DNA from: Marsupella aquatica
Taxonomy: Eukaryota > Plantae > Marchantiophyta
DNA: 64,000 nucleotides
Direction of reading: 5' to 3'
NCBI GenBank assembly: GCA_973895155.1
Contig: OZ316894.1
Coordinates: 372,001 to 436,000, forward strand
Every line of letters begins with the position of its first letter. The first letter of the stretch is position 1. The notes beneath the pieces were generated by a model. That model searched no databases, had not been told where the DNA came from, and saw only the letters and a list, made by a program, of their open reading frames with translations. Both the position numbers and the translations under genes were made by a program. Positions 31,344 through 64,000 of this stretch are shown piece by piece.

Positions 31344-31368
31344 ACCCTAAACCCTAAACCCTAAACCC
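31338..31368 (+). repeat. (CCCTAAA)4 plant telomere-type repeat
   Basis: Four exact units; they supply the TAA stop of the 494-aa ORF. Confidence 0.9.
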
Positions 31369-31619
31369 TTCACTTCTCTCCCTATGATATTCCAGTCTGT
31401 GACTCACCAGATCAGGGATTCGAAGGAGTTAATGCAGCCTTGCGATCCAACCCCAACCTTGTTGCAGTTGTCACTTCTTCTACCCAGACTCCTAGAAACG
31501 CTATCATCTATAAAATGGAGCCTAGAACACCAGAGCAACAAGTCCAGAAGTATGTCACCACTTGTAAGGTTATGCATGCCAATACACCGCCTATAAGTGA
31601 GTTCTAGAGGTTTTATTAT

Positions 31620-36756: not shown

Positions 36757-37356
36757 CGACTGATAAGGAGAAGAGAACCACACGAAGGGAAGACAAGGAA
36801 TTGGTACGGTGAATGCAAAGGAATCCAAAGTCACATGTGTTGGGAATCCAAAGTAAGAATTCAGGGGAATCCAAAGTAACCCATACTACAGTGTACTTGA
36901 CAGTGACAGGGAATATCAGTATTTAACACCTTCATGTGAAAGATCCATCAACAAGATCTCAACTCTGTTAATCCCACCAGCACTAACGTTAACGAAGCTC
37001 CAGTTAACGTTAACTTGGAGTCTAGTTAGTATTTACCAACAACTCGGTCGGATGAAATGTACATTCAACTTCAACGGGTTGGAGACAATTAATCTCTAGG
37101 TGACCAACTTGGGTTGGGTGTCCGTTGACACTAACCATTCTCCAAAAAAAAATATATGCCGATGGAATAAATAAACCAAAGTATTTATGAAATGTACTCT
37201 TTCAAATCAAGTTAACCCTTCCAACGGTAATATAATTTTGAATCTTTGGTGCACGTAGATGCACTTGGTCACCATTTGGAACGAGTCTGGATCTTTTTAA
37301 TGGAAAAATGGACAAACCCCATACGTTGTTTAAGCCCAGTATTTAGACAGTTTTTT

Positions 37357-37993
37357 GCCAGCGACATCGCTGGCCAAATCACTGTAAACCCTAAACCCTT
37401 AATATGATGTTTGTCCATTTAAAATGAGCTCTTAATGCTTTCTGAAAATCTTGAATACTCTACAGAATCTTTGAAACTGTTAACCCCCTCTACTAAAAGC
37501 TCTCGGTTTAACTACTATGTTATGACATTTAGGAAATATATTAGGTTCTGGATTCCTGAATTGACCCCCAAACTGAAATAAAAGTATATGCAAATTTCTG
37601 CGGCTTCAGGCTAGCGGTATCGCTGGCCTTATTGAAGTTTTATGAATGGTTTAATTACGGGACATCTCAGATTCCTCTCTTCTGTTTATATCATGTTGTT
37701 GGTGAACATGATGTTTTCAAATATCAAAAATATAGATCTTAAACACTGAAAACTTACCTGAATTATGTCTAGCGAGGTCGCTAGCAAAACTATTTTTAAA
37801 CACAAAGCTCCAAGTTCATTTAGCGTCCTAGTACACCCCAACTATACCCCAAGTTCAGGAAATGTGCTAGTATATCCCTCACCATACTTCTTGTCAAAAT
37901 AAAATAGGCCATTTAATTAAAGAGTAAACACTAAAATTCTGGTTCATAAGCACCTCATTATTCGAGAAAATTTAGGCTAGCGATATCGCTGGC
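37357..37993. repeat. palindrome family AGCGA-N2-TCGCT of the outer element
   Basis: GCCAGCGACATCGCTGGC (37357), GGCTAGCGGTATCGCTGGCC (37609), CTAGCGAGGTCGCTAG (37769) and GCTAGCGATATCGCTGGC (37976). Also CAGCGAGATCGCTG at 13162 and a degenerate copy at 11903. Confidence 0.85.
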
Positions 37994-38474
37994 AATAATT
38001 CTTTCTTGAAGGTATTATAGCCGTTGAGGTTTTGTCGTATCTGCAACATTAAACTGACGTTCCATTATTCTATATTCATCCATGATGTTTGTGTCCAAGT
38101 ATTATTCTATATATTCATCCATGATGTTTGTGTTTGGATCCTTGTCTTGGTTCTCTTTTGATGGCTCCGAGCGTCATTTTCTGGCGTCGGAGCACTGGAG
38201 ACATTGTTACTCTTGAAGTTTCATGTATGAGAAAGATCACCAATGTGACCGAGGCCTTTCTTTTGACAAGATTTGGGCTCAATAACTGTGATTTCATTTC
38301 GAGGTTGTTCTTTCTTGTTTCACTTCATGGATCTAGGAAGGACGAATTCATTTCAAGAACTCTACATGGTGCAAGAGTTTGGGAGGTTGCTTCCGGAGAT
38401 GTTGTTGAGGTTTTGTCAGGCAGAGATGATTTTCTCGAGCCTTTTCAGAATACTCGGGAAAAAGTGTTTGTGGG

Positions 38475-41400: not shown

Positions 41401-42455
41401 CGGCACCACCTGCTTCAGCCACGGTAACTTTACGAAGGGTTCCAAGCCGGATCCGGCCATGAAGCCTTGGTATTTCCGAGTCTGCATAGCCGTAAAGCAT
41501 GCATCCTCCTCCCGTGCAAAGTGTAATTGCACCTCCTCGGGGAGGATCGCCGCCCAACCTTTCCAGGTGTCATTTCTTGTCGGAATGGCGTTGATGGGGT
41601 CGACCTCCTCCTCCTCGTCGTCTCTCTGCCTCCTGCTCTGCTGTTCTGCTGGCTTCTTTGGTGCCGCCGACCTCGTTCTTTTTGTTGGGGTGGCCTCTTC
41701 GTTGTTGTTTCCCTTCCTCTTCATCTCGGCTGCCGTGGATGTCTCTCCTAGCATGGTTGCCTTTGTCCACCCCTCCGTGCTACCCTTCAACTCCCAGTGT
41801 ATGTCGTTGCAGCGTTTGATGGCTTCGCCGATGCCGACGACTCTGTCTTCGCAAAACAGAAGGTCGTCGAGTTGATTGGTAGTAGGAGTCCACAAGAATT
41901 TGGCCTTGATGAGTTCTCCTCCTAAGAAGGCAGCTTTCTGCAGCTCCCACAATCGAGCGAGCTCCTGCCGTTCTCGAGCTGCTCTCTCTGATTCTTCGTC
42001 CTCGTAAGTCCCAATGTACTCAGTTGCCCGTTCGAACAGGCATCCCCAAAAATGTGCCGCTTGATTGACGTTGCTCATACCCTTATCGAGTTGATAGTCG
42101 GTATCTGCTCCCACCCTGAGTGCTTGCCTAAGTAGTTGACAGTAGTTGGCCGCCCGTAGTTGTCTGCCCAGTTTGTGCTTGCAAATGAGCCATAATTCCT
42201 TGCGATCGGTCCTTACCCCTCTCCTCCTCTGGTTCTCCCTCCCGTTGGTTACCCCTAGCTGCCGGCACTTAGCGTGCCCTAACCCTAATCGTGTTCTCTC
42301 CCCCGGCGTCCTTACTTCCGGCCTCGGCTCGGGTTCCATAGTCACCCTTAATTGTTTATATTTTCCTTATTTTTGTAACTATACTAAGGTGTTTCTAGGG
42401 TTCACTTCCCTTTTCCCACTTTAACTAGCCCAATGATTCCTGGCTAGGCATCACA
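38475..42455 (-). mobile_element. LTR B1 (3'-truncated) with disrupted LTR ORF (38613-42345), inserted in the internal region of element B2
   Basis: Terminus GGCATCACA at 42455. Colinear with about 56126-60010; the last ~770 bp of the LTR are missing. The right flank is B internal sequence matching 63850-63883. Confidence 0.88.
38746..38895. repeat. 18-bp coding tandem repeat GCATCGGCTACGGCCTCA, about 8 units, encoding (AEAVAD)n
   Basis: Read directly; the other B copies have only 1-2 such units. Confidence 0.92.
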
Positions 42456-45487: not shown

Positions 45488-47024
45488 TACCTATACTTCT
45501 TCCTATCTTCATATCTCACAGCTTAAGAAATGCCCCCTCCATCTTGCGCCAAAAATGTGGTGCGTCCCATGGCTCCCCAAACCCAAGAAACCCCCCTGCG
45601 CAGGCTGATTCCCACAGGTTTCGTCCTCGGAGAGGCCGTTTCCTCGGCTTAGCGGCATGGGACGCTACTAACTTCCCTCTACTACTTCTATTAACATTTT
45701 ACACACATATACTGGACAGATCCTTCATCGGGTCATGAGATACGAAGTCGGCCTAATCTAGGCCTTCCCTTGTATTCCCCTTCTTTTCTTTAGGTATATT
45801 TGGATTCCGCCGCCAGAATGATCCCCAATTGGTTTGGTTAAGCCGCTAAGACCTCTCTCAGCTCGACACATCCAACTCCCTTGCTTACTTCCCTTTGATG
45901 TGGGCACTCTTCACACAAGTTAATGCGACACACAAATAGCAAAATGACTCCTTCTGACTGAGTTATACCATGCACTTGCCATACAAACAGTACATCTCAT
46001 ACACAAGTTCTACGAACTAAGTCGTGAGGCCAACTCTATTCAACTCTTAGGCATGAGGAAACATGAATATACACAAGGGTCACCGTATAACTAACCGAGA
46101 GCTTCTCTTACTACTTGATCCCAGCCCTGCTGGTGCAACTAAAAACTTGCAAAGGAAGAGGCCCAAAACTCCCCGCTGCCCAGGTACTTATCCTGGCAGT
46201 GGATCTGCCCAAGTCCTTGCAACATAAGCCTAATCTATCCTACCTGTAATGTACCTAACTACAATCTATCTATGTACAGCGAGGCAGGAGCACAAGTGTT
46301 GCTCCTACGAGTGGATCCGCAATCCCACTAATCTAAGTGTCAGGGCCGTCTCTTGGTCTTGATCCTCAGCCTAATCTTGGAGATCCAAGCCCGCCCTGCC
46401 CACTCACGCCTCCTACCTCCACGTCTGCCCCTCCTAAAAGGAACGGCGCCCTTGCACCGTCACGACACCGATGGTGGATCCTCAATGGACGCCCAGTAGC
46501 CACTGTCATCGGTCCGTCCTCTGACAGATTACCTGCCCCAGACTGAGTCAACGGGTCTTCGGCCTGACTGGGTCCACCCTCGGCTTCAGCCTCTGCATCG
46601 GCCACGGCCTCCCCGGCTTGCTCAATTGGCGGATCTGGTACACCGGCTTCATTACTGAGCATTTTGGCTTGGGCCGTTGTGACGCCGCCGGTACGGCGGT
46701 TAATGAGTGATTCGGTCTAACTGCGCTTGGCATGCGCGTTAGGAGTGTCTTAGACCGCTATTATTAGCATAACGACAGTATTTAGGTAATCATTATGGGT
46801 AGGATATCATTAGGCAATAAGGGGGGATTCAGGATCGGACTGGCGGCTGGTCGCTATTCGCACACCCGGGTTACGAGCGTGGAGGGGCCCCTCCCTCGGG
46901 TCCGTATAACGAACTTAAGGAAGTGGCCACTGACACGCACTGACTCAGACCGGCACACCACAAGCGTGAGCGGTTCATCCTATGGGCGTCGAGGAGACGA
47001 CGGGGGATCAACAAGCCCTCAAGG

Positions 47025-47032
47025 TATAAAAG
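47025..47032 (+). promoter_or_regulatory. candidate TATA box of the LTR A ORF
   Basis: TATAAAAG about 100 bp upstream of ATG 47133, conserved in A1 (reverse strand near 6458-6465). Confidence 0.5.
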
Positions 47033-47132
47033 GGGAGCCAACCCTTTGTAGTGCACCAGTCCATCAGTCCACGCGCCAACTTCGACCCCAGCTCTCTCGT
47101 TCGCTCTAAGTCGCCACTACTATCTCCTCTGA

Positions 47133-49769
47133 ATGTCGCACACGATCCTCTCCAGCTCGGCCATTCGATTCTGGACACAGTTCCTATCTACCGGAAGGCA
47201 CTTCGCCGACTCATTGAAACACGCCAACCCGCGCCGATACGAAATCGAACGCGAGTACGAGAGAGCCATCCGCCTAGCAGGACGACACCACTACATCCTT
47301 AACTTTAACTACCCATCTCAGAGCGAGCTTTACCGACCTGCAGAGGTATCCGGGTACTTCTTCAACGGAGACAAATATATCGGGTTCTGGGAAGCATTGC
47401 TTCGGCTTCTGGATGAGGTCTTCAATATCCCGGGTACGATCGACTTGCAACGACATCACTTCGACCACATCCCTGCTCAGGTTCGGGCTATCATCAACAG
47501 CGAGTCCAGCACTACCCGTTCGACAAGGTCGTCTGCACTCGCTTCGGAGAACTTCTACCAGCACCTATAGAGTTTCATAGGAACTCGGCCAGCAACCAAC
47601 ATGACCAACTCAGTTGTACCCGTACCCGTACCGGTACAACCTCAGGCTCAGCTTCAGCTTCAGCCTCAGCCGCAGCCTAGCCAAACCCCACCACCGATCG
47701 CCCAGCCAGCACAAGTACGCTCCGTCATCAACGCTGTGGATCTTAGCGATGACGACGAGGCTACCCTACCCTTGACCAGGCGGCCCAGAGGAGCAAGCGC
47801 TCAGGGGGCCGACACTATATCGTCCCCACCCCCTGCTCTGACCCCAGGAGCGGCCCCGGCAGACAACATGGTGACCGTGGCCGACCCGGGCCCGTTACTA
47901 ACGGCAGTGGCACTACCCAGGCCCGATCGGGAGGATGGGGAGGTGTCACCTTCCTCGAGCCAGTCACGGGGGAAGAAGAGGAAGGAATCCGCCACTGCAT
48001 CCGGGTTACCGTTGGCCACGGTAGCCGTGGCCAAGGTGACGATGCACCGCATGGGGGAAAACGTTCACAAAAACATCCTCCATCCCAAACATGCGGTGTA
48101 CCTGAAGACTCAGGGATTCGAGCACCTCGCCTCCCTCCCCTGGAACACTTGTAGGTACTACGGGGAGGACATGACGGAGTTCGTCAGGAATTATGACGAT
48201 GCGCGTCAACATACTCGGCTGCGGGGAAGGAGTATGTCTCTCACGGAAGAACGGCTCAGGATGATCTTCGGGTTACCCGAAGGTGACCATCGCGTCGAAT
48301 CACGGGCTCCCGGGGGCAAGGGAGCCAAGTACCAATCTTCAAGTTTTCCCTCAGAGGGAGCAGTGGACAACGGGTTCGTGATGAAGACCTGCCTCATCCC
48401 CGAGATAGCTGAGCGACTGGAGTTCCAGAGGTACGCCCTCCACATGATGGAACCCCGGGGGGAGATCTCCGCCGCCCAGGTTATTCAGGTCAAGAACTAT
48501 CGACCTAGGAGGTGGGCGTCGTACTTCGCTAAGAAATTCCATGAAGAGATGGAGCTGCGAAGGAAGACGTTGTATATTGGCGGGAAGGCGTATTTCGCTA
48601 GCCACATCGAGATCATTCTTGAGTGGTACGCCCGGTTTGATCGACGAACCCTTCCCCGTGTCAACGTTACAAAGCTGGTCCCAGCTAGGTGGGTTTTCCC
48701 GGCCTTGGAGAGGCGGCCCCAACCCGAGGCCCAAAGTCCAGCGGACACGCCAGCTTCACCCACCCCACCTCCACAAGTAGCTGTAGTCGTAACCGAGGAG
48801 GTACCGGATGGGTCGGGTGTCACAACCGTTGATGCGACCCAACAGGTCGGGCTAAGTACAGAAGTCGGTACGACGGAGATCTTACCCGAACCCGGTTCTC
48901 CCAAAGACCCACCGGCAGCTATTCCGGAGAACCGGACATTGCTACAGGAGGACGCTCCAGCCCCTTCCAACGTTACGTCCCCAGGGCTGGACGTCACTGC
49001 CCCGGCCCCCGTGCGTGTTGACGTCTGCCCGTGCCCAACTCCGGACAGACACAACTTGGACCACCCGGAACTCTTCGTACCGGGTACATTTCTGAACGGG
49101 CTTCTGGGAGATTTCTCTCATCAGATTGCCCGGGATACCGGGGAGTTCATGGCCCGGAAGGTAGCCTGTTTCTTCAATCAGGAGTTGGTTGCCGCAGTAA
49201 AGGCAGGTCGGGCCCAGTCAGAGGCCCTTCAGAGGATAGAGCGGGACCGGGTGGAGTCCGTGTACCTAAAGAACGAAGTTGCAGCTCAAGAGGCTGAGCT
49301 TCGGCAACTACGACCCAAGGTTGTAGCCGCCGATGAGCTGTTAGCAAAGGCACACGCTTTTACCGCCCTAGCCGAACAGGCCAAAGCTGGGTACGATGCC
49401 GAGATTACACGACTCCGGAACCAGATTGACAGTTTGAAGAATCAAACTGTCACCTGGCAGAAAGACCTGGAGGAGGCCGAGGAACGGGCCCAACGGGACA
49501 CGGCGGAGATAGCCACGCTGCAGACCGAGGTGGCGCGGCTCCAAACCGAGGCCGAAAAGCAGGACCAGCTGGCGGGTAAACTGACAAGTGACGCCCAGCA
49601 GCTGGAGGAGGCTTGTCAGGAGGCAGCAGAGGAGACGGACGCGGCAAGGCGAGAGAACGAATCTCTGATGGACCAGGTCCAGCTCCTCAAGGCGGACAAT
49701 GACAGGCTTCGAAGGCAGCGGGATGGCCGCTCCCATTCGGGCGGCTCTGGCAAGCGTGCCAGGCATTAG
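47133..49769 (+). CDS. LTR A ORF, ~878 codons with one premature TAG (47568-47570); accessory domain plus C-terminal coiled coil
   Basis: The 145-aa and 722-aa ORFs are in frame, and A1 has CAG at the stop position. The C-terminus is heptad-rich. Confidence 0.85.
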
Positions 49770-52700
49770 CAGCGGAGTAGGAATAGATTAGGATTAGGAC
49801 TGGCTTAGTCAGGCTCTTGGGACAGGCACCTGCCTTAGGTACAGCAGCGCTGCCGTGCTGTCCAGCCTGCGTAGATTAGGATCTTCTAATAAGACACAGC
49901 CGTTTTCCGGCCTGACTGTCAGCTTAGTTAGGACCTTAGTCAGCGAATCTTCGGCGAGAGGACACCCCGTCCCTCGTCCCTTAGTATTTAGTGCACCCCT
50001 CGGTAGAGGCAAGGGGGGGTTTTTAGTTGCAAAGTTGGGCGTCCGCGGTATGTGCGGGGAGTCCCGACCTCTGGGAATGAAAGAGTACCAAGGGGAGGGG
50101 GTAGGACTAAGCTCGTCGGGCGAGTGCGGAGCCGGGCTCCGTTGTAGTGTGCACCCTCGGCCTTGAACCTGTTCATTCCGGGGCTGTCGGGTCAACTAAG
50201 TGTACGCATATGTTCCCTTTGTAGTAAAATCCTTTCCCATCATTTTCCTTCGTGTAAATCGAGATTGTATGCATGTGCGTGTGTATGTGTGTGGGTTTCT
50301 CATATATGGGTGGCAGTGCCAGGCCGAACGCACTACCCGAGACGTGCACAGGATGCAGCCTGCGGGTAAGTGGTTGCGAGCACGGGTTGAGGACCTGTAT
50401 CATCGAATCCGGATCGAAGGCGGACAGCACGAAGGCTTAGAAGCCCTTAAGCCGGGGTCAATCCTGCTATCGACTAAGGTATGTTCCGGCGGCGGAACAC
50501 AAACCATACCTAGGAGGTGTCCGTATTTAGCAGTATGCGCACTTAGCGCTAGTTTACGAGAATAAGGTGCATTACGTGCTTCCCTTCCTGCCCGACCCCT
50601 CAGATTTACGAAGGATGTGCCCGTCTAAGCTGAAGTCTGAGTTAAGGCCGCAGCCGATGACGTGACAGCCGTGCCATCCCTGCCTACTAGAGTAGTTTGA
50701 TCTTCTGTCATGACCCTGCCTACGGTTGGTACCGGTTTTACCTCCTTGGTAACAACGGCTTGAGAAGCCGTGTTACTCCTTGACCCAGAAGGTTTTCGCT
50801 TCTTCTTTTGCTTTGGTTCGGCAGCTGGTCCCTTCCCTTCGGTACTTATCTCCGGCACCGGGGTGTGTGTCTCGGTTTGTCCTTCGGCCAGTACCACTCC
50901 TGGTAACAAGGTTGCCCCACTTGGAGTTGGTCCTGAGGAAGCCAAGCACTTAAATACTACGGCCTGTTTCTTCAGCCGCTCCGTTTGGTTGTCGGCTCGC
51001 CTTTGTAAGTTCTCCATCTTCCTCGTGGTTTCTTCCAACTCCTCCTGAGTTTCGTCCAGGTCTTTCCGTACCTCCTGTAGCTCCTTTTGGGCTTCATCCA
51101 ACTCTTTCTGGGCTTCCTCCAACTCTTTCTTTAAGGTAGCCTTCTCCTCCTAGGTTTCTCTCAGCTCCTTGTCGAGCTCCGTAATGACCTCAGACTCCAT
51201 TTTATTCATCTTGGCATAAGTCTGGTCGAGCTGGTCGTCTTTCTCGCGGAGGTCGGCCTTGAAACTGGCCGTCATGGACGCAAGCTCCTGCCGCCGCATG
51301 ATAATTGCCTGATAGGATTTCCCTAACTTGGCCTCCTTCTGCTCAAGGGCTCCGCGGATATCCTCGAGTTCTCCCTTCAACGCCCTCTCCCTTCTTTGAG
51401 TCTCCGCCATGGCCCGGTTGTTGGCTGCTATGTGGGCCTCCTCTGTGTCTCTCAGCTCTCGCTTCTACTTCTCCCTTTCTTTGACCGCCTCAGCCAACTC
51501 TCCTTGAGTCTGAGTCAGTTTATCCTTGATAATCTGATTATCAGATTGTGCGGTATCCAACTGCCCCTGCATGATGTTTAGCTCATGCCGTTTAATCCTA
51601 AGCTCATATTGGGCTTTCTTGGATGCCCTCAGGTCTTTTACCTCGGCTTCCCTCTCCGTAAGCCGTCGGATGACCTCGTCCTTCTTGCTTCTCTCCAAAG
51701 CCACCGCCTCTTCTAATTGGTGCTTCTCCAACCTTTCCCTCTGGAAAAAAGGTCCCTGCTCCAACTCCTCCCCAAAGATGTTGAGCGCCAGGTCCCCACA
51801 CATCTCCCCGTACTCCATGGCTCTATCTTTAGCATAGGTGGAGTAACCAAAAGTCATCGGCATCAACCACCTTGGCCTCTGTTCCCAAGCTGTCTTGCGG
51901 ATTTCTTCTATGGTAGCAAGAGGGTTGCTTCTCTTTTTGGCAAGCCGCCTGATGTCCTGCGGCCAATCTCCTCCTGGTAAATCTTTCTCCCTAGCCAGGG
52001 CTGCCTTCTCTTCCTCTCTGAGTCGCTCCTGAAACTCTTGTGCCGTTTGCTTGATGCCGTCAAAACTCGGGGGAGCGACATCTGGTGGGGGAGACTCGGG
52101 GCTGCTCTGCTGGGTCGGGTCCCCTCGAACTACTCTTGGAAGAGTGGGGATGAACCGGCCACAGGTCCTTACTCATGGAACATGATGGTCCAACCCACAG
52201 CCAGAGTTATCATTGTTGTAGTCCTCCACCGCCTCCTCCACTGTTTGGACTCCCGGCTTCCCCCTCTGTTCTCCTGGTCCTGCCGTGAACACAACCCCAC
52301 AGATCACGGGTTCTGGATCCTCCGGCTTCCACGTTGATCTCATCTTCTCCCTGTCGTGACCAGGGGCCTCGGGCTGCTTCTCCTCGGCTTTGGGACTTGA
52401 AGTTCCACATTCGGACTCCCGGCTCGTGTTCTGGCCTCCTTCTCTCCTTGGCCCCTGTAAAGGGGTTTTCCCTAGTAAGTGGGCTGAGGCCGACTTTAGA
52501 AGCAGTATTTGGTATTGGCCCCATTGCCGTTGCCGTTCTCTTTTCCTTCTCCAGCAATTTCAGCAGATTCTGCATGCCTGGTTGCTGCATCGGCAAGTCC
52601 TCCTTCCTCGGCCTAAACACCTGCTCGATTGTAGGACTGTCGGACTAGGTTGGTTTCTCTGTTGCTGGCCTCGGTTTTAGAACCTCCTCTGGTGCCCTTG

Positions 52701-54252
52701 CCTGCAAGGGCAGTACCGGGGCAAATATCCGGCTTTGGACATACCGGCACAACAGCGGCATGTGATAACCAAGCCGGGACACGCTTCCCATGCCGATTAC
52801 CTGTTGTTCCTCCTTCAAGATCTTCTTCAGTTGGTTGAGGAGGTACCCGTTGTAGTCCCGGCTTGGGTCTGGCCTCTCTGCCAGGTAGACCTGTGCCTTG
52901 CCAATCTCTGCCCTTGGCAAGTTGCAATGCATGGTCACCCGCAAGAAATCGATCATTTCTCCGATGTGCGGGTTGGTGCAGGTGTTCCGGAAGAAGCCAT
53001 TCTTTGTTGATGGCCCTGGAAACGACCGGAACTCCTTGTCTGGCAAGGTCTTCCAGGTCTCTACCTTGGTCTTGTTGCCCATCAACAAGCCAAACACTTC
53101 GGCGATTACCTAGGGCGTGAGATAGAAATCCTTCCCATACACCCTCGTGGAATTGGTCTCGGGCTCCCATGACCCTACGAATTCTAGTAAATCTGAATCC
53201 GGCACCTCCGGCTTCAACCATGGTAATTTTACGAAGGCTTCCAAGCCAGATCCGGCCATGAAGCCCTGGTACTTCTTGGTCTGCATGGCCGTAAAGCATG
53301 CATCCTCCTCCCGGGAAAAATGCAGTTGCACCTCTTCTGGTAGGGTTGCCGCCCAGCCTTTCCAGGTGTCATCCTTTGTTGGAATGGCATTGATGGGATC
53401 GACCTCCTCCTCTTTGGCCTCCGCCTGCCTCATGCTTCCCTGCTCTGCTAGCTTCCCTAGTGCCGCCGACCTCGTTCTTTTTGCCGGGGTGGCCTCTTCG
53501 TTGTTGTTTCCTTTCCTCTTCATTTTGGCTGCCGTGGATGTTTCTCCTAGCACGGTTGCCTTTGTCCACCCCTTCGTGCTACCCTTCAACTCCCAGTGTA
53601 TGTCGTTGCAGCGGTTGATGGCTTCTCGAATGCCGATGATCCTGTTTTCACAAAACAGAAGGTCGTCAAGCTGATTGGCAGTGGGAGTCCATGAGAACTC
53701 GGCCTTGATGAATTCTCCTTCTAAGAAAGCAGATTTCTGCAGCTCCCACAGTCGAGCTAGCTCCTACCGTTCTCGAGCTGCTCTCTTTGCTTCTTCATCC
53801 TCGTAAGTTGTAATGTACTCAGCTGCCCGTTCGAACAGGCATCCCCAAAAATGTGCCGCTTGATTGACATTGCTCATACCCTCCTTGAGTCGTTCGTTGG
53901 TATCTGCTCCCACCCAGAGTGTTTGTCTAAGCAACTGACAGTAGTTGGCCTCCCGTAGTCGTCTGCCCAGTTCGTGCTTGCAAATGAGCCGCCATTCCTC
54001 GCGAGTTGTCCTTACCCCTCTCCTCCTTGATGCTTCCCTACCGTTGGTTACCCCTAGCCGCCGACACTTAGTGCGCCCTAACCCTAATCGTAATCTCTCC
54101 CCCGGCGTCCTTACTTCCGGCCTCGGCCCGGGTTCCATAGTCACCCTTACTTGTTTATATTTTCCTTATTTTTGTAACTATACTAAGTTGTTTCTAGGGT
54201 ACACTTTGTTTTCCCATTTAACCGGCCTAGTGATTCCTGGTTAGGCATCACA

Positions 54253-56125
54253 GTCCGTCCTCTAACAGATTACCTGGCCCAGACCGAGTCAACTCTTCAT
54301 CGGCCTGACTGGGTCCACCCTCGGCTTCGGCATCAGCATCGGCCACGGCCTCCCCGCCTTGCTCTAGTGGTGGGTTAGCTACCGTGGCTTCATCAATGGT
54401 GGTCCCAGCCTCGGCCTTGCCATCCCCACATTCTAGGACCGGTGGATCCACTGTCGTGACCATGCCGGAGGTTGGTGTCGGGTTTACCTCCTCGGTCACA
54501 ACGGCTTGAGAAGCCGTATAACTCCCAGACCCAGAAGGTTTCCACTTCTTCTTCTTCCCTATTTTGGTAGCTGGTCCCTTCCCCTTGCCACTTACCTCCA
54601 GCACCGGTGTGAGTGGCGTGGCTTGTCCTTCGGCCAGTACTACTCCTGGTAACTTGGTTGCCCCAATTGGAGTTGGGCCTGATGAAGCCAAGCACTTAAA
54701 TATTGCGGCCTGTTTCTTCAGCCGCTCCGTTTGGTTGTCGGCTCGCCGCTGTAAGTTCTCCATCTTCCGCGTGCTTTCCTCCAACTCCTCTTGCACTTCG
54801 TCCAGGTCCTTGTGCGCCTCCTCCAGCTCCTTCTGGGCTTCCTCCAATTCTTTCTGGGCTTCCTCCAATTCTTTTTTTAAGGTAGCCCTCTCCTCCCGGG
54901 TTGCTCTTAGCTCCTTGTTGAGCTCTGCAATGACAACAGACTCCATCTGGTTCATCTTGGCATAAGTCTGATCAAGCATATCGTCTTTCTCACGCAGGTC
55001 GGCCTTGAAGCTGGCCGTCAGGGATGCTAGCTCCTGCTGCAGCACAATAATCCCTTGATAGGATTTTCCTAACTCGGCCTCCTTCTGCTCAAGGGCTCCA
55101 TGGATATCCTTGAGCTCCCCTTCAACGCCCTCTCCCTCCTCTGGGTCTCCACCATGGCCCGGTTGTTGGCGGCTATGTGGACCTCCTCTGCGTCCCTCAG
55201 CTCTCGCTTCCACTTCTCCCTTTAATTGACAGCGTCGGCTAACTCTCCTTGGGTCTGATTCAGTTTATCTTGGATAATCTGATTATCAGACTACGCGGTA
55301 TCCAATTGCCCTGCATGATGTTTAGCTCATGCCGCTTAATCCGCAACTCATCTTGGGCTTTCTTGGCCGCCTTCAGGTCTTCCACCTCGGCTTCCTTCTC
55401 CCTAAGCCGTCGGATGACCTCGTCCTTCTTGCTTCTCTCCAAAGCCACCGCTTCTTCTAATCGATGCTTCTCCAACATCTCCCTCTGGAAAAAGGGTCCC
55501 TGCTCCAACTCCTCCCCAAAGATGCTGAGTGCAAGTTCCCCACACATCTCTCCGTACTCCATGGCTCTATCTTTAGCATAGGTGGAGTAAGTAGAAGTCA
55601 TCGGCATCAACCACCGCGGCCTCTGTTCCCAAGCCGCCCTGCGGATTTCTTCTATCGTGGCTAGAGGGTTGCTTCTTTTCTCTGCAAGCCTCCTGATGTC
55701 CTCTGGCCAATCTCCTCCTGGTAAATCTTTCTCCCTAGCCAGAGCTGCCTTCTCTTCCTCCCTGAGTCACTCTTGAAACTCTTGTGCCGTCTGGTTTATG
55801 CCGTCAAAGCTCGGGGGAGCGACATCTGGTGGGGGAGACACGGAGCTGCTTTGCTGGGTGGGGTCCCCTCAAACTACTCTTGGAAGCGTGGGGATAAACC
55901 GGCCATAGGTTCTTACTCCTGGAACATGATGATCCAACCCATAGTCGGAGTTATCATTGCTGTAGTCCTCCACCGCCTCCTCCGCTGCTTGGACTCCCGA
56001 CTTCCCCCTCTGTTCCCCTGGTCCTGCCGTGAAAACGGCCTCACAACTCTCGGGCCCTGGTTCCTCCTCTGGCTTCCAGGCTGTCTTCTCCCTTTGTTTT
56101 CCGCGGGCAAGAGCCTTAGGCTGCT
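54253..56125 (-). mobile_element. internal fragment of LTR B3, cut by B2 on the left and B4 on the right
   Basis: ORFs 54248-55213 and 55260-55610 match the coiled-coil part of the B LTR ORF. It is bounded by the termini of B2 and B4. Confidence 0.85.
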
Positions 56126-59100
56126 TGTGATGCCTAGACAGGAATCACTCGGCCGGTTAAGTGGGTAAAGCAGGAAGGCACCCTAGGAACACCTTAGTAT
56201 AGGGACAAAACAAGGAAAATATAAACCATTAGGGGCAACCATGGAACCCGGGCCGAGGCCGGAGGTAAGGACGCTGAGGGTGAAAACTCGATTAGGGTTA
56301 GGGCGCGTTAAGCGTCGGCGGCTAGGAAGGATCAATGGGAAGAAGGACCGGCAGAGGAGAGGGGTAAGGAGCGCTTGCAGGAGATGGTGGCTCATTTGCG
56401 AGCACGAACTAGGCAGACGACTATGGGAGGCCAACTACTGTCAGCTGCTTAGGCAAGCACTCGGGGAGAGAGTAGATACCGATGATCGACCTAAGGAGGG
56501 TATGAGCAACGTCAATCAAGCGGCACATTTCTGGGGATGCCTGTTCGAACGGGCAACTGAGTACATCAAGACTTACGAGGACGAGGAATCAGAAAGGGCA
56601 GCTCGAGAACGGCAGGAGCTCGCTCGATTGTGGGAGCTGCAAAAGACGGCTTTCTTAGGAGGCGAACTCATCAAGGACGAGTTCCTGTGGACGCCTACTT
56701 CCAATCAACTCGACGATCTTCTGTTTTGCAAAGACAGCGTCGTCGGCATCCGAGAGGCCATCAAGAACTGCAACGACATACACTGGGAATTAAAGGGTAG
56801 CACGGAAAGGTGGACCCAGGCAACGGTGCTAGGAGAAACCTCCACAGCAGCAGAGATGAAGAGGAAGGGAGCCGTCAACGATGAAGCCACCCCGGCAAAA
56901 AGAACGAGGTCGGCGGCACCAAAGAAGCCAGCCGAGCAGCAGAGCAGGAGGCAGGGAGAAGCCGAAGAGGAGGAGGTCGATCCCATCAAGGCCATTCCAA
57001 CCAGGGATGACACCTGGAAGGGCTGGGCGGCAACCCTACCGGTGGAGGTGCAACTACATTTTGCACGGGAGGAGGATGCATGCTTTACGGCCATGCAGAC
57101 CAAGAAGTACCAAGGCTTCATGGCCGGATCTGGCTTAGAGGCCTTTGTAAGATTACCATGGCTGAAGCCGGAGGTACCGGAGTCAGACCTATTAGAATTC
57201 GTGGGGTCATGGGAACCCGAGACCAATTGCACGAGGATATATGGGAAGGATTTCTATCTTACTCCCAAGGTAATTGCCGAAGTGTTTGGCTTGCCGATAG
57301 GCAATAAGACCAAAGTTGATACCAGGAAGACCTTGCCTGACAAGGAGTTCCGGTCGTTCCCCGGGCCATCAACGAAGAATGGCTTCTTCCGGAACACCTG
57401 CACCAACCCGCACATAGGAGAGATGATCGACTTCTTGCGGGTGACCATGCATTGTAACTTGCCGAGGGCAGAGATCGGCAAGGCACAGGTCTATCTGGCA
57501 GAAAGGCCAGACCCAAGCCGGGACTACAACGGGTACCTCCTCAACCAATTGAAGAAGATCTTAAAGGAGGAGCAATAGGTAATCGGCATGGGGAGCGTGT
57601 CGCGGCTTGGCTATCACATGCCGCTGTTGTGCCGGTATGCCAGAGGTCAGACTTTTGCCCCGGTACTTCCCCTGCAGGTAAGGGCACCCGAGGAAGCTCC
57701 AACGCCGAGGCCGTTGGCTGAGAAGCCTCAACCACCTGTTAGCCCTACGATCGAGCAGGTGTTTAGGCCCAGGAAGGAGGACTTGCCGATGCAGCAACCA
57801 GGCATGCAGAGTCTGCTGAAACTACTGGAGAACGAAAAGAAATCGGCATCGGCAACAACAACGGCAACGGCAACAATGCACGACACTACTACAGAGGTAG
57901 GCCTACACCGGCTCACAAGAGAAAACCCCTTTGCTGGAGACAAGGAGAGAATCAGGCCGGAATCCAAGCCCGGTGTTCGAATGTATGTGGGAATCTCAAG
58001 CTCCGAATCTGAGGCAGAATTGCCTGAAGCTCCTACCGACGAAGAGGAGAGGGAGAAGCCGGACGGCCAAGAAGTAGAGGAGGCAGTGGAGGACTGCAGC
58101 CATGATAATTCCGGCTATGGGTCGGACCATCACGTCCCAGGAGTAAGGACCTGTGGCCGGTTTGTCCCCACACTTCCAAGGGTAGTGCGAGGGGACCCCA
58201 ACCAGCAGAGTAGCCCTGAGTCTCCCCCACCAGATGTTGCTCCCCCGAGCTTCGACGGCATAAAATAGACGGTGCAGGAATTTCAGGAGCGAATCAAGCA
58301 GGAGGAGGAGGCAGCCCTGGCTAAGGAAAAGGATTTACCAGGAGAAGATTGGCCGGAGGACATCAGGCGGCTAGCCAAAAAAGGAAGCAAACCTCTAGCC
58401 ACGATTGAAGAGATCCGCAGGACGGCTTGGGAGCAGAGGCCGCGATGGGCGATGCCGATCACTTCTACTTACTCCACCTACGCTAAGAATAGAGCCATGG
58501 AGTATGGTGAGATGTGTGGGGAACTTGCGCTCGGCATCTTTGGAGAGGAGTTGGAGGTAGGACCCTTTTTCCATAGGGAGCAGTTGGAGAAGCACCAATT
58601 AGAAGAAGCGGTGGCTTTAGAGAGAAGCAAGAAGGACGAGGTCATTCGGCGGCTTAGGAGGATGGAAGCCGAGATTGAAGATCTAAGGGCGGCCAAGAAA
58701 GCCCAAGATGAACTGCGGATTAAACGACATGAGCTGAACATCATGCAGGGGCAGTTGGACACCGCGCAGGCTGATAATCAGAATATCAAGGATAAACTGA
58801 CTCAGACGCAGGGAGAGTTGGCCGACACGATCAAAGAGAGGGAGAAGTGGAAGCAAGAGCTGAAGAATACAGAGGAGGCCCACATAACAGCCAACAGCCG
58901 GGCCATGGCGGAGACCCAAAGAAAGGAATGGGCGTTGAAAGGGGAGCTCGAGAAAATCCGTGGAGCCCTTGAGCAGAAGGAGGCCGAGTTAGGGAAATCC
59001 TATCAAGGGATTATGGCGCTGCAGCAGGAGCTTGCGTCCCTGACGGCCAGCTTCAAGGCCGACCTAAGGGAGAAGGACGAGATGCTCGAACAGACTTACG

Positions 59101-60784
59101 CCAAGATGAACCAGATGGAGTCTGTCATCATTGCAGAGCTCGACAAGGAGCTAAAAGCAACCCAGGAGGAGAGGACTACCTTGAAACAAGAGCGGGAGGA
59201 AGCCCAGAAGGAACTAGAGGAGGCACGCAAGGACCTGGATGAGACCCAGGAGGAGTTGGAGGAAATCACGAGGAAGATGGAGAACCTCCAGCGGCGGGCC
59301 GACAACCAAACGGAGCGGCTGAAGAAACAAGCCGCAGTATTTAAGTGCTTGTCTTCATCAGGCCCAACTCCAATTGGGGCAACCAAGTTACCAGGAGTGG
59401 TACTGGCCGAAAAAGCCGCGCCACCTGCACCAGTGCCGGAAGTAAGTGGGAAGGGGAAGGGACCAGCTGCCGAACCAGAAAAGAAGAAGAAGCGGAAACC
59501 TTCAGGGTCAAAGAGTAATCCGACTCCACAAGCCGTGGTGACCAAAGAGGTAGAACCAGCACCATCCTCCGACATGAATACGGCAATAGATCCCGCTATG
59601 ATCACAGGTGGGGGTGGTGCGGCCCAAGCCGAACTACTCAGTAAGGAGGCCGGTATTCCAGATCCGCCTCTTGAGCAGGCCGGGGAGACCGTAGCCGAGG
59701 CTGAGGCCGTAACCGATTCCCGAGCCGATGCCGACGCTGATGGTGGACCCAGTCAGGCCGATGGAGAGTTGACTCAGTCAAGGGCAGGTAATCTGTCAGG
59801 GAATGAGCCTACGGCAGTGGCTGAGGAGGAAGCGTTGGGGGCGTCCATTAAGGATCCACCACCGGTGTCGTGACGGTGCAAGGGCGCCGTTCCTTTTAGG
59901 GAGGGCGGACGTGGAGGGAGGAGGCGTGAGTGGGCAGGGCGGGCGCGGATCTCCACGTTTAGGATTAGGATCAGAACCAGGAGCGGCCCTGACACTTAGC
60001 TTAGTGGGATTGCGGTCCCACTGGTAGGAGCAACACTTGTGCTCCTGCCTTGCTGTACATAGGTAGATTCGGGCAAGTAGATTACTGTTAAGTAGATTAG
60101 GCTTACGATGCAAAGAATGGCGGATCCACTACCAGGATAAGTACCTGGGCAGCGGGGAGCTCAGGGCCTCTTCTTTAGCAAGTTTTTAGTTTGCACCAGC
60201 CGGGCTGGGATCAAGTAGTACGAGAAGCTCTCGGTTAGTCATACAGTGACCCTTGTGTATATTCATGTTTCCTCATGCCTAAGAGCTGAATAGAGTTGGC
60301 CTCACGGCTTAGTTCGCAGAACTTGTGTATGAGATGTACTGTTTGTATGGCAAGTGCATGGTATGACTCAGTCAGAATGAGTCATTTTGCTATTTGTGTG
60401 TCGCATTAACTTGTGTGAAGAGTGCCCACATCAACCAAAAGGAAGGAAAGTAAGCAGGGGAGTGAGAGTTGGATGTGTCGAGCTGAGAGAGGTCTTAGCG
60501 GCTTAACCAACCTATTGGGGATCATTCCGGCGGCGGAATCCAAACATACCTAACAAGATGGAGGGGAAGACAGGGGAAGGCCTAGATTAGGCCGGCTACG
60601 TATCTCATGACCCGATGAAGGATCTGTCCAGTATATGTGTGTAAAATGTTAATAGTAGTAGTAGAAGGTTAGCAGCGTCCCATGCCACTAAGCCGCGGAA
60701 ACGGCCTCGCCAAGCGCGAAACCCGCGGGAATCGGCTTGAGCTGGGGGGTTTCTTGGGTTTAGGGAGCCATGGGACGCACCACA
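56126..60784 (+). mobile_element. 5' LTR of element B4, 4659 bp
   Basis: TGTGATGCC...GCACCACA, followed by TTTT and the PBS. The left terminus is shared with B1 and B2, the right with B2. Confidence 0.92.
56241..59873 (+). pseudogene. LTR B ORF, ~1210 codons, two in-frame TAG stops (57576, 58266); accessory domain plus long coiled coil
   Basis: ORFs of 445, 226 and 533 aa share one frame, and B2 has Gln codons at both stop positions. Confidence 0.88.
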
Positions 60785-60788
60785 TTTT

Positions 60789-60806
60789 TGGCGCTAGATG
60801 GAGGGG
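60789..60806 (+). promoter_or_regulatory. primer binding site (tRNA-Asn-like) of B4
   Basis: TGGCGCTAGATGGAGGGG, 4 nt after the LTR end. Confidence 0.85.
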
Positions 60807-60853
60807 GCATTTCTTAAGCCGTGAGATATGAAGTTAGAACGGAAGCGTAGGTA

Positions 60854-63847
60854 ATGACTGACCTTACGCTGAGGGAAGAAAGAGTGATTCAACGGGAGAG
60901 AGCTCGACTGCAGCAGCTCGCCGGGTGGCATGATACACAGCGACTGAGAGGGGCAGAAAGAGCTGGTAGCTCCGAAACTGGAAGTGGTGTCGAAGAAGAC
61001 ATACCAGAAGAAGAGTCGGTAAGGAGAAGTGAGTCTCCAACCGACATGGGGGAACCAGAGGCACGGCCAGACGAGAGGCCAGGGACCAGATTGAGCCAGC
61101 GGTCGCGCATACATTACAAGGCATTTCATGGGAGAGGAGATGAGGATCCGGACGAATGGTTGGATGATTTCGAGGGAACCGCTGCAGCAAATGGAGAATC
61201 GGCCATCAAGATGCAGATTCTTCCCGGCCTGTTCAAGGGTGAGGCTAGGCCTTGGTACAGAGCATTAGATGTGGAAGATCAAGCCATCTGGGATATCTTC
61301 AAAACACTCTTTGTTAAGGAGTTTCGACCCATTGGAACTTCAGAACTAGCAGTGCTGAAGTTGGGACAACTTCGGTTCAAGGAGAACAAATCCTTCAGGA
61401 AGTTCTTGCAACGCTTTCAGAAACTGGTAAGACGTACAAAGACCAATGCATCTGAAGGTATGCAACTTCAATGGTTGGTGAATGCTTTGCCACAGAAGAT
61501 GAGTTTTGCAATTAGGAAGGAGAACCCGGAGACTTTAGCCAAAGCAATTAAGGATATTCAATTATACATTAATGCAGATATCACAAGCCGGAAGAAACAG
61601 CTTAAGTCTGAGAGTTCCTCATCAGAGGAGGGATCACCCCATAAGAAAAAAGATAAGAAGAAGAAACATTCCAAGAAGTCTAGAAGTGATAAGTCAAGCT
61701 CGGATAGTGGGAGTAGCAAGAGTGAGTCATCTTCTAGTTCTGAAGAAGAAAAAACTAGGAAAAGGAAGGGCAGAAGGAGAGGGAAGACGAAAGTCAAGAT
61801 GGAGGCTAAGCCACCAGATAACATCGTAGCCCTTACCGAGCAACTTAAGGCTATCATTGCAGAGGTAAAACCAAAGAAGAAGGTAGTACAGGAGGATAGC
61901 TCTGTATGGTGTGCCTTATGTTATAAAACCGGACACCATAAAGATGCGTGTCCTAAGCTTAATACTAATCATGTTCGGCATGTGGCCGAGATCAGACCAT
62001 GTCAGGGAGAAGTAGAGTACTTTTTAGGAGATGCCGCTGATAGTGTTTTCGGCATCAGTGAGACTGGAGCACGAGACCTATCCAACAGACCTGCATCTCT
62101 ATGGTCAGGGTTAAGGAACAATCCAGGAGAGATGTATCCTCGGATTATTCAGAACCCGTCAGTACCTCCTAGGCCGAATGTGCAAAGATTTGCGGCGTGC
62201 TATAATTGTGGTCAACCTGGCCATTTTGCTAGAGAATGCCCGAATGCACGCAAACAGGGTGATGGACAACCAGCTCAGCTATGTATGGGATGCCGACAGG
62301 AAGGTCATATGCTAGGGCAATGTCCTACTTGGTTGGCAGGCCTGGCCGCAAATCATAAGCTTTTGCCGATCAAGATCTTACCGCCAGGTACTACCCCCGG
62401 AGGAGTTCAAATCAACCACATCGAACTAGGATGGCAAGAGGATGCCGAGGCAGAGTTCGTACCATCTGATGATGAGGCCGAAGCCCTATCAACCTTCTCA
62501 GAGGAGGATTTAGATCATGATTGCTGCCGGGTCTCTACTCGATCTACCAGAAGGAAGGAAAGGTGGGATGGGCTGGCCAAAAATAAAGGGAAGGTTACGG
62601 AGGAAAGGATCGACTCTTCGTCAACATCAACAGAAGGAGAAGGGAGGGCTCCGGCAATACAGGTAAGCCATGAGCCCACCAGTGAAACCAATCCTTCACA
62701 AGATAGCGACTTCAATCGAGATCATCCTAAGTTGTTCTACCCCTCTGTTACGGCTAGTGTTAAGGAACAACTAAGAGAATTAGAAACCCTGGAGAATACC
62801 GAAGCCATTGCCAAGGATGTAAAACGAGCAAAAGCATTGTTTGCTTCGGAAGACCCAACAGCTGTGGAGACTAGCGTGGCAAAACTGGCCGAATCCAAGA
62901 CGGAAACACCACCAGAGGAGAAGCCGATTGTTCCCTATGACCTGGCTAAAGATGTACTAGAATCTAGAGTCTCGGCAACAGTAGGTCAACTATTGAAAAA
63001 TAGCCCGTACTTCCGGAAGCAATTAAGGAAGGCTATTCTCGGCAAGCCGAGGTTACCCAAGGTAGCAACCAGATCCGACGTACTAATGATAGAAGAAGAT
63101 CAAGGAGCCCCAACATTACCCTTAATGATTCAAGGAGAATTATTACTACGGGTACCCATCAATGGAGGATCAGGGGTATGTATTATGATTGATTCAACAG
63201 CAAAAGGGTGGGGTCTAACACCGGAGATGACTGGAAGAGTGTTGAACATGGCCAATGGATATCAGGTCATTCCCACGGGAGTGTTAACCGGCATCAAGAC
63301 AGAGATAGGAGGTATCTTCTTTAGCATTAACTATGTAGTAATGAAGCCGGTAAATCCTACGTCATTCCGGCTATTGATTGGTAGGCCATGGCTGTACCTA
63401 GCCGAGGTAATAGAAGATTGGGGTAAAAAGCAGTTCACTTTCGGGACCCCCTCTATCACGGTATCCTGGGACACTAAGGATGACCGTAGGAAAAGCATAA
63501 GGGAAGTAGATGGGTACGACAGTGGACTGGAGTCAGCCGATGAAGTACGTTGGTTAGAATGCCTCACTAACCTAACCGAAGAAGGTGTCTTTGGACCAGA
63601 GGTACCCCCCAGCGGATTATGGCAAGAACCAATGGAAGGTGACTTGGAAGAAGAAGACGAAGAGGTCGAGGACTGCTTTACAATAGAATCCACCTTTTTA
63701 GCTGCAATTCCGGAGGAAGTAAAGGATGTAGACCAATTGGATGAAACGGCTAAGTGGGGAGCAGTAGCAGGGACAGTGGATTTTCTGCAGGCGTTGTGGC
63801 AGAGCCGGCAGGGTTCACAACGCCATCGATCATCGGCAAGGAATTAA
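60854..63847 (+). CDS. gag: gag-protease of Ty3/gypsy element B4 (non-chromovirus, Tat/Athila-like), 997 aa
   Basis: Retrotrans_gag-like region, three CX2CX4HX4C knuckles, and protease VPINGGSG..LLIGRPWL. The catalytic Asp is Asn in this copy and Asp in B2. Confidence 0.92.
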   Translation: MTDLTLREERVIQRERARLQQLAGWHDTQRLRGAERAGSSETGSGVEEDIPEEESVRRSESPTDMGEPEARPDERPGTRLSQRSRIHYKAFHGRGDEDPDEWLDDFEGTAAANGESAIKMQILPGLFKGEARPWYRALDVEDQAIWDIFKTLFVKEFRPIGTSELAVLKLGQLRFKENKSFRKFLQRFQKLVRRTKTNASEGMQLQWLVNALPQKMSFAIRKENPETLAKAIKDIQLYINADITSRKKQLKSESSSSEEGSPHKKKDKKKKHSKKSRSDKSSSDSGSSKSESSSSSEEEKTRKRKGRRRGKTKVKMEAKPPDNIVALTEQLKAIIAEVKPKKKVVQEDSSVWCALCYKTGHHKDACPKLNTNHVRHVAEIRPCQGEVEYFLGDAADSVFGISETGARDLSNRPASLWSGLRNNPGEMYPRIIQNPSVPPRPNVQRFAACYNCGQPGHFARECPNARKQGDGQPAQLCMGCRQEGHMLGQCPTWLAGLAANHKLLPIKILPPGTTPGGVQINHIELGWQEDAEAEFVPSDDEAEALSTFSEEDLDHDCCRVSTRSTRRKERWDGLAKNKGKVTEERIDSSSTSTEGEGRAPAIQVSHEPTSETNPSQDSDFNRDHPKLFYPSVTASVKEQLRELETLENTEAIAKDVKRAKALFASEDPTAVETSVAKLAESKTETPPEEKPIVPYDLAKDVLESRVSATVGQLLKNSPYFRKQLRKAILGKPRLPKVATRSDVLMIEEDQGAPTLPLMIQGELLLRVPINGGSGVCIMIDSTAKGWGLTPEMTGRVLNMANGYQVIPTGVLTGIKTEIGGIFFSINYVVMKPVNPTSFRLLIGRPWLYLAEVIEDWGKKQFTFGTPSITVSWDTKDDRRKSIREVDGYDSGLESADEVRWLECLTNLTEEGVFGPEVPPSGLWQEPMEGDLEEEDEEVEDCFTIESTFLAAIPEEVKDVDQLDETAKWGAVAGTVDFLQALWQSRQGSQRHRSSARN

Positions 63848-64000
63848 ATACCAAGGGATCGGCATACAAGCCGATTACGAGGGCAGAACAAATTGAGGCC
63901 CTATTAGAAGCCGAGAGAGCACATCGGCCTAACTCTCAGGAGCAAGAGGTGGATGAGATGGACAGACACGATCCAGAGCCAAGGCAGGAAGGGGAGCCGA

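Follow-up and report, generated by a model that had tools for sequence, protein, structure and literature searches.

Giant Ty3/gypsy retrotransposons outside the chromoviruses (Ogre with its ORF1, the rice elements Retrosat2, RIRE3 and RIRE8 with their ORF0, and the OTA elements with their 'eORFs') have multi-kb long terminal repeats (LTRs) with TGT..ACA-type ends and carry additional open reading frames (ORFs) which, in the available text of the sources, are described as lying in sense orientation upstream of gag and as fast-evolving, lineage-specific and without assigned function (PMC3485330, PMC6317226, PMC6431247). LTR lengths given in the same text are >3.2 kb for Retrosat2 and up to about 5–6.5 kb for Ogre (PMC3485330, PMC6317226, PMC6431247), and the additional ORFs are reported there to contain PMD (57% of those in Ogre), Transposase_28 (23% in Retand) or ATHILA ORF-1 (16% in Athila) (PMC6317226; PMC6431247). 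All of the general properties recur in family B, a group of repeats in a 64,000-bp stretch of DNA from the liverwort Marsupella aquatica (GenBank assembly GCA_973895155.1, contig OZ316894.1, positions 372,001–436,000, forward strand; this whole stretch is 'the window', and coordinates below refer to it). Copy B4 of this family contains a 4,659-bp unit (56126–60784), very probably an LTR, most of which is taken up by a frame that, judged by its substitution pattern, is a real protein-coding gene. In the known giant gypsy elements the extra ORF is described as internal, between the 5′ LTR/primer-binding site (PBS) and gag, whereas the family B ORF is found upstream of the PBS, inside the repeat, so that each element has it twice and solo LTRs retain it. 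The PMD, Transposase_28 and ATHILA domains typical of OTA extra ORFs are undetected by Pfam here, and the reverse transcriptase (RT) of family B lies outside the window.

A frame contained wholly within an LTR is known from mouse mammary tumour virus (MMTV), where the superantigen gene (the 'LTR ORF') is, in the available parts of the literature on it, likewise accessory and unneeded for reverse transcription. The MMTV LTR gene is much shorter, about 320 codons, and is located in U3. By the same test of position, the family B frame (56241 or 56502 to 59873) is wholly within 56126–60784, and the frame of a sister family, A, is wholly within a solo LTR. MMTV is a mammalian retrovirus, a sequence relation was neither found nor expected, and the family B gene would have to be placed in U3 for the parallel to be complete. 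CERV of the Caenorhabditis elegans element Cer1, encoded in the env position, is another element-encoded protein other than Gag or Pol without homologues outside, and acts in the nucleus on Cer1's own RNA, according to the available text of PMC10309623; a nuclear coiled-coil accessory protein in the present family might act in a comparable way. LTRs are called 'long noncoding terminal repeats' in the available part of PMC6431247, the wording 'in the LTR' or 'within the LTR' is absent from a review of additional ORFs (PMC7264820), and phrase searches of 8.4 million papers, all outside subscription journals, for an ORF inside an LTR gave only MMTV-type cases and unrelated uses. We file the locus under the known theme of gypsy elements with extra ORFs, the location of the ORF inside the repeat being the new part.

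The window consists of eukaryotic repeat DNA with nested LTR retrotransposons, carrying gypsy- and copia-type domains. Self-comparison reveals the family B unit in four copies (B4, X, Y and Z; Table 1), 82–85% identical at the DNA level, but internal regions in only two. B4, X and Y have the same 5′ terminus, TGTGATGCC, each after a different flank, and B4 and Y have the same 3′ terminus, ...GGGACGCACCACA (...CACCACA), followed by TTTT, a PBS-like site and gag. The unit ends (TGTGATG...CACCACA) form an imperfect 7-nt inverted repeat, with 6/7 terminal bases complementary. A first-pass annotation of this DNA had proposed a unit running from TG at 56126 to CA at 60784 next to PBS and gag in two copies, plus a further copy sharing the TG terminus; B4 and Y agree with the former, and copy X, which begins at the same 5′ end (42455), supplies the latter. 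No tRNA genes were found in the window. Between B4 and Y the internal regions share 88.8% identity in an alignment of 4,276 columns, which also takes in the LTR end; that of Y is directly behind its LTR. Of the domains expected in Ty3/gypsy elements (gag with a CCHC knuckle, then protease, RT, RNase H and integrase), Pfam matches gag and the CCHC knuckle in B4, and the window ends before RT. The protease-like region of B4 (63400–63700) reads INGGSGV at the place where the D-S/T-G catalytic motif of retropepsins would be expected, perhaps a further sign of decay in B4.

Public sequencing data provide a second view of the unit: 13 coded runs from nine studies contain part of the stretch, six of them at least half of its words, and contigs of four runs (X1, X2, X3 and X6) were aligned to 55900–64000. 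Summed contig depth, by the tool's own warning a poor measure and read here simply as more than one unit per internal region, is 3.5, 4.1, 4.1 and 3.1 times higher in these four runs, respectively, across 56171–60777 than across 60778–64000 (bin means), with the drop located between bins 60507–60777 and 60778–61048. Across 56126 depth jumps about 100-fold, from 312 to 33,758 in run X4 and from 826 to 49,526 in run X5. In three contig joints the unit stops exactly at 60784 and continues not into the PBS but into places within the family B LTR (59940, 57625 and 58192), as expected of the 3′ LTR or solo LTR of an element nested in another B LTR, and such nesting occurs three times in the window. 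Contig joints in the runs aligned to 55900–64000 gave no sign of splicing, being without GT..AG ends. Tens of thousands of matching contigs in two runs indicate that family B is very abundant. Given the three- to fourfold depth relative to gag, the exact ends at 60784 against other DNA and the solo LTR of sister family A described below, 56126–60784 is, with high probability, a true LTR of a Ty3/gypsy-type retrotransposon.

Family A is represented by two LTRs, A1 and A2. A2, located inside the LTR of copy Y, begins with TGTGACGCC and ends with GACGTGACA, and is flanked by a perfect 5-bp target-site duplication (TSD) of GCCGT, which is single in the uninterrupted B4 sequence. The ends of A1, which has a PBS-like site and gag behind it, match those of A2. 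TSD and shared ends together identify A2 as a solo LTR that carries the family A gene; an ORF of 722 codons continues the frame opened at 47133. The Gag proteins of the two families are only 37% identical over 121 residues, and the T run plus PBS-like site (25 nt) is identical in A and B despite their unalike LTRs. The first-pass annotation had seen no evident similarity between the LTR DNA of the two families, which is borne out save for one 29-nt element and a few words of 9–13 nt. This 29-nt element (TTCCGGCGGCGGAA..CAAAC.ATACCTA) lies 155–260 nt before the LTR end, at 60525–60552 in B and 50484–50512 in A, and the word TTAGGATTAGGA is found in both LTRs shortly after the stop codon of the gene. 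Compared with A2, A1 has a 1,312-bp insertion (4894–6200) at the position corresponding to 47283, inside the family A gene, which contains a 227-codon ORF on the + strand (5162–5845). A1 was also considered as the 3′ LTR of a pol fragment (11470→8700), but there is no purine-rich tract immediately before it.

At the four readable targets of family A and B insertions (42455, 54252, 56126 and 46678) the target is in every case a family B element: X sits within the internal region of the element of copy Y, Y and B4 are in the LTR of Z, and A2 is in the LTR of Y. Insertion into own copies may reflect sheer abundance or a preference.

The evidence for a gene comes from the pattern of change between copies. 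The ratio of nonsynonymous to synonymous divergence (dN/dS; Nei-Gojobori, four aligned B copies, B4 frame) is 0.23–0.30 over the whole frame in all six copy pairs, and 0.97–1.36 in shifted-frame controls on the same columns. By region it is lowest in a domain at aa 251–445 (0.07–0.10), followed by the coiled coil (0.11–0.21) and the middle (0.14–0.33), and highest in the acidic C-terminal tail (0.49–0.90); the gag-protease ORF gives 0.15 between B4 and Y. Family A (A1 vs A2) behaves in the same way, with 0.24 over 47601–49766 and 0.11 in the domain (shifted frames 1.17 and 1.33), and 0.32 in the upstream segment (shifted frames 1.52 and 1.03). Indels are multiples of three in 15/23 cases inside the B frame, one of the eight out-of-frame cases being an artefact of joining copy Y, compared with 3/13 in the non-coding LTR parts, and every indel common to two or three copies (lengths 12, 3, 24 and 21 nt) preserves the frame. 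Of the three indel variants listed for the runs inside the frame, two are of 3 nt and the third has a trivial share of depth, while five of the six behind the stop are of 1–2 nt. As dN/dS between transposon copies combines selection in active lineages with the neutral decay that follows insertion, these values would, if anything, understate the constraint. With low dN/dS in the correct frame only, indels that keep the frame, and a protein match between A and B without DNA similarity, the frame is, on these substitution patterns, a real protein-coding gene that was under purifying selection during diversification of families A and B.

Its start probably differs from that first annotated. Codons 1–87, counted from the ATG at 56241, lack coding constraint (dN/dS 1.01, 0.88 and 0.83), whereas the corresponding values for codons 88–250 are 0.17, 0.21 and 0.31 (in all, 0.15–0.31), and Met88 (56502, MSNVNQAAHFWG) is kept in X and Y; the family B gene thus probably starts at Met88, codons 1–87 being 5′ untranslated region. 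The TATAAA before it is the only TATA[AT]A in the B LTR, and the surrounding 13-mer, GGAAAATATAAAC, is identical in B4, X and Y, with no variants at 56214–56226 listed in the four runs. A transcription start ~30 nt after this box would leave the ATG at 56241 outside the transcript. In family A the sole TATA[AT]A (GGTATAAAAGG, 47025) is kept in A1, and the first ATG, 108 nt further on (47133), opens the constrained frame. Depletion of ATG in the putative B leader was also considered and is unclear, X and Y having one further ATG and B4 four.

The stretch behind the gene, 59874–60784, is more conserved than any other LTR DNA: B4 and Y differ there by 8.8%, compared with ~20% in the first 115 bp and a synonymous divergence (dS) of 0.47 in the gene. 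This part includes a G-rich tract directly behind the stop codon, a block (60235–60430) that is 97–98% identical and has a palindromic pair of TGACTCA sites, and an A/T- and UG-rich block, GTATATGTGTGTAAAATGTTAATAG (around 60630–60660), about 130 nt from the LTR end. In family A, TATTTA and AATAAG motifs are about as far from the LTR end, and both families have TATA-like and AATAAG/TAAAAT-like motifs 100–150 nt before it. These features make 59874–60784 a candidate for the genomic promoter, R and U5. Across copies, dS is 0.3–0.56 in the LTR gene and 0.32 in gag, against a divergence of 0.09–0.15 in 59874–60784, which points to strong constraint in the latter, CpG decay at third positions in the former, or both.

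The encoded protein has, in order, an N-terminal region with a basic patch, a conserved domain, a proline/acid-rich linker, a predicted coiled coil, the basic patch KKKKRK and an acidic tail. The domain (LPW..EFV..LT..FGLP..NGF..TC..P.I.E) matches both A copies at 26–28% identity over ~180–230 residues (tblastn E 3e-13 and 7e-17; blastp E 1.5e-18), and the alignment has 27 invariant columns. The predicted coiled coil (aa 776–1041) shows 3.5-residue periodicity up to 10× background and an E/K/Q/R/L/A content of 0.6–0.77. Each of the three protein features named at first pass has thus been recovered: the domain with the motif LPW..EFV..G..LT..FGLP..NGF is common to both families, heptad periodicity extends over 266 proline-free residues, and KKKKRK is present at aa 1081–1086, its role as a nuclear localisation signal (NLS) being a guess from its composition. 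Likeness of the N-terminal parts of A and B is not significant (19/500 shuffles reach the score), and a common 'MS...FW' start is anecdotal.

Relatives of the protein were sought by several routes. Pfam searches of ORF pieces gave only sub-threshold matches to coiled-coil families, hmmscan of the domain from B4, X and A2 gave nothing at E<=10, and PMD (PF10536), Transposase_28 (PF04195) and ATHILA (PF03078) were not matched by ORF pieces at E<=0.01 or by the domain at E<=10. The 543-aa ORF of copy X, at both near and longer lengths, and the 722-aa ORF of family A were used in word-based searches of 5.8 billion protein clusters. These gave no homologue at E<=1e-3, though coiled-coil and proline-rich words may have displaced other candidates from the lists. 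A PDB profile search gave 0 matches at E<=10, searches of metagenome contigs with peptide patterns and the 21-nt PBS-like site gave no match, and Rfam gave 0 matches in the whole window. In an ESM Atlas feature search, for which 0.9 is the threshold for more than a lead, the A and B domains scored only 0.79–0.85, shuffled proteins reaching 0.8 a third of the time. At this level, below 0.9, both domains match the same 306-aa hypothetical Streptophyta cluster, the same Transposase_32 cluster and ATHILA ORF1 clusters, and the B domain also matches DUF1985 and a cluster with PMD in 18% of members. The stretch W..ET..T....G....LT...V...FGLP..G resembles the N-terminal PMD motif. A distant PMD-like relation is a lead, not a result.

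Our preferred reading, to which we assign a probability of roughly 55%, is that 56126–60784 is a true LTR with a long gene under purifying selection that would be transcribed from its own TATA box in every copy. Each LTR would constitute a small gene composed of TATA box, short leader, ~1,124 (B) or 879 (A) codons and ~900 bp with poly(A)-like motifs. The gene would occupy an enlarged U3 with its own TATA box and its transcript would end at the LTR poly(A) site, with a conventional promoter/R/U5 core for genomic RNA in the last few hundred bp. The protein could then be supplied in trans from both LTRs of an element as well as from solo LTRs. It is predicted to be nuclear and to oligomerise through its coiled coil, while the N-terminal domain, possibly very distantly PMD-like, would do the binding for the element; a nuclear, self-associating binder of element RNA or chromatin is our guess. 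More tentatively, an abundant giant gypsy-type lineage may have turned its LTR into a complete gene (TATA, about 900–1,100 codons, poly(A) region), in which case the coding LTR may also predate the split of families A and B. The first-pass view that the shared architecture is a conserved lineage trait stands in so far as a mostly coding, multi-kb LTR is found in two deeply diverged families; it is weakened by the indirect status of the B unit as an LTR and by the broken ORF of B4.

Several observations weigh against this preferred reading. The family B frame was first annotated as an ORF of ~1210 codons, ~78% of the LTR, and its length and the position of its ATG, 115 bp inside the unit, are correct, but it is not open, as B4 has in-frame stops at codons 446 (57576–57578) and 676 (58266–58268). 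No copy in the window, of the four of B or the two of A, has an intact frame: frameshifts are found in X (two), in Y, together with stops and the A2 insertion, and in the fragment Z. As noted at first pass, self-comparison reveals no family B 3′ LTR or TSD-flanked solo copy in the 64-kb window, nor is there a two-LTR element, and the internal region of B4 reaches only 3.2 kb before the window ends. The depth measure carries the warning given above, the letters upstream of 56126 are heterogeneous among contigs (agreement 0.52–0.54), and a polypurine-like run before 56126 is present in only one contig (run X6), too little for a junction of polypurine tract and LTR. None of the 13 runs is on record as RNA, and start site, poly(A) site and expression are predictions. 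An AlphaFold2 model from the five-sequence domain alignment is unusable (pLDDT 33) and lends no support to any fold or function. The sole canonical TATA box is upstream of the gene, and read plainly this favours a different arrangement of the promoter, considered next. With respect to the broken frames, both B4 stops are minority variants in 4/4 runs, nearly all depth differing at the first base of each stop, and are thus private decay of an old copy. The differences of B4 from the bulk of copies are mostly transitions of cytosine-deamination type, and B4 is most likely an old, decayed copy.

That different arrangement, the main rival, which we regard as less likely, keeps the coding LTR and makes the upstream TATA its only promoter. 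The gene would then lie in an R of 3–4 kb as the first cistron of the genomic RNA, U3 would be reduced to about 125 bp (B) or about 380 bp (A), RNA polyadenylated in the 5′ LTR would be the accessory mRNA, and read-through RNA the genome. Such an element would resemble those with ORF1 and ORF0, Ogre and Retrosat2, but with the gene upstream of the PBS, and the sense ORFs upstream of gag in these related giant gypsy elements are in keeping with it, as far as the available text of the sources goes (PMC3485330, PMC6317226). The plain motif count also fits it better, with one TATA[AT]A per LTR, just before the gene, and A/T- and UG-rich motifs of poly(A) type confined to the DNA behind it; the first 115–350 bp of the LTR are the most diverged, as expected of U3, and the weak Atlas leads (PMD, ATHILA ORF1, Transposase_32) suit an origin from a 5′ extra ORF. 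However, the conserved blocks, and the TATA-like/AATAAG-like motifs that both families have 100–150 nt before the LTR end, have the look of a conventional promoter/R/U5 core, and many plant promoters are without TATA, so that a missing second box proves little. An R of several kb would also be far beyond usual R lengths, and 3–4 kb is, to our knowledge, longer than any R known.

It is quite improbable that the unit is something other than an LTR, either a 5′ leader that contains an ORF0 and that each element has once, or a distinct element located by chance before the PBS. The window would allow this, having no family B 3′ LTR, solo copy or TSD, but its four unit copies against two internal regions, the depth of 3.1–4.1× gag in 4/4 runs, the joints that end at 60784 against DNA other than the PBS, the TG...CA ends with a PBS-like site 4 nt behind, and the occurrence of the homologous family A unit in two forms, a solo copy with TSD and a 5′ LTR, all speak for an LTR. 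Least probable, and very unlikely in our judgement, is that the frame serves no function for the element, being either a dead relic or open merely by chance in GC-rich repeat DNA. Every copy in the window is broken, and the word-based search of large protein collections found no homologue, both of which a relic would explain; it would leave unexplained why both families show dN/dS far below 1, and show it solely in the correct frame, why shared indels stay in frame, why protein is conserved between A and B without DNA similarity, and why the B4 stops are minority variants.

Table 1 Family A and B features in the window. Arrows give the direction of reading for copies on the minus strand.
Feature	Position	Strand	Remarks
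Family B LTR, copy B4	56126–60784	+	4,659 bp; 5′ LTR (very probable); element runs off the window
Family B LTR, copy X	38475–42455 (42455→38475)	−	Corresponds to B4 56126–60010; truncated, then unrelated DNA
Family B LTR, copy Y	45556–54252 (54252→50668 + 46677→45556)	−	Full length, split by family A solo LTR
Family B LTR fragment, copy Z	54253–56093 (56093→54253)	−	Corresponds to B4 about 58000–59800; cut by Y and B4 insertions
Internal region of copy Y, with PBS and gag	45555→42456	−	Directly behind Y LTR
Internal region of B4	60785–64000	+	Up to window end
TATAAA	56220–56225	+	Only TATA[AT]A in B LTR; 21 nt before ATG 56241
1,211-codon frame	56241–59873	+	78% of 4,659 bp; stop codon 59871–59873
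Probable coding region from Met88	56502–59873	+	1,124 codons, 72% of LTR
Second basic patch, KRTRSAAPKKP	56898–56930	+	In N-terminal region
Conserved globular domain common to family A	57105–57644 (aa 289–468)	+	LPW..EFV..LT..FGLP..NGF..TC..P.I.E
Predicted coiled coil	58566–59363 (aa 776–1041)	+	266 residues without proline
Basic patch KKKKRK	59481–59498 (aa 1081–1086)	+	NLS-like (putative)
3′ non-coding LTR part	59874–60784	+	911 bp (898 bp in A); conserved blocks
PBS-like site, TGGCGCTAGATGGAGGGGGCA	60789–60809	+	21-mer, 4 nt behind LTR in B4 and Y
Gag-protease ORF of B4	60854–63847	+	Pfam Retrotrans_gag 5e-10, zf-CCHC 2e-8
Family A solo LTR, A2	46678–50667	+	Inside LTR of copy Y; TSD GCCGT 46673–46677 / 50668–50672
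Family A gene in A2	47133–49769	+	879 codons, 66% of LTR; one stop at 47568
Family A 5′ LTR, A1	1545–6836 (6836→1545)	−	Then 13 nt, same PBS-like site, gag (1036→2)

The window contains further elements. A gypsy pol fragment (8700–11470, − strand) begins inside RT and continues with RNase H and integrase zinc and core domains, followed by a PHD finger (PF00628, 7e-12) after the integrase, where chromoviruses have a chromodomain; it could not be joined to copy Y or B4, and no tie to family A or B was found. A small copia-type element (14194–19685) has 189-bp LTRs that are 99.5% identical, indicating a young insertion. It is followed by a 19-kb stretch of lower G+C content (0.40–0.47; 19686–38474) with many long ORFs on both strands without Pfam or PHROGs match, which may be a virus-like or other large mobile insertion. 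Within this stretch, an ORF at 34856–35332 (+) matches N6/N4 DNA methylase (Pfam PF01555, 3.4e-8; PHROG DNA methyltransferases, 1.9e-8).

Annotation pipelines mask LTRs, which are treated as non-coding regulatory repeats, and an abundant protein family of the kind described here is one that gene catalogues seem to lack. A selected gene inside the LTR changes the solo LTR from a scar to a possible trans-acting gene copy, and would provide a plant-type counterpart to the MMTV LTR ORF. It also raises the question of what length of U3 or R is compatible with reverse transcription: should the single TATA box be the genomic promoter as well, these elements would replicate with an R region of 3–4 kb. 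If the LTR has indeed become a complete gene in this lineage, every LTR, including thousands of solo LTRs, would be a potential stand-alone gene for a nuclear coiled-coil protein of an unnamed family.

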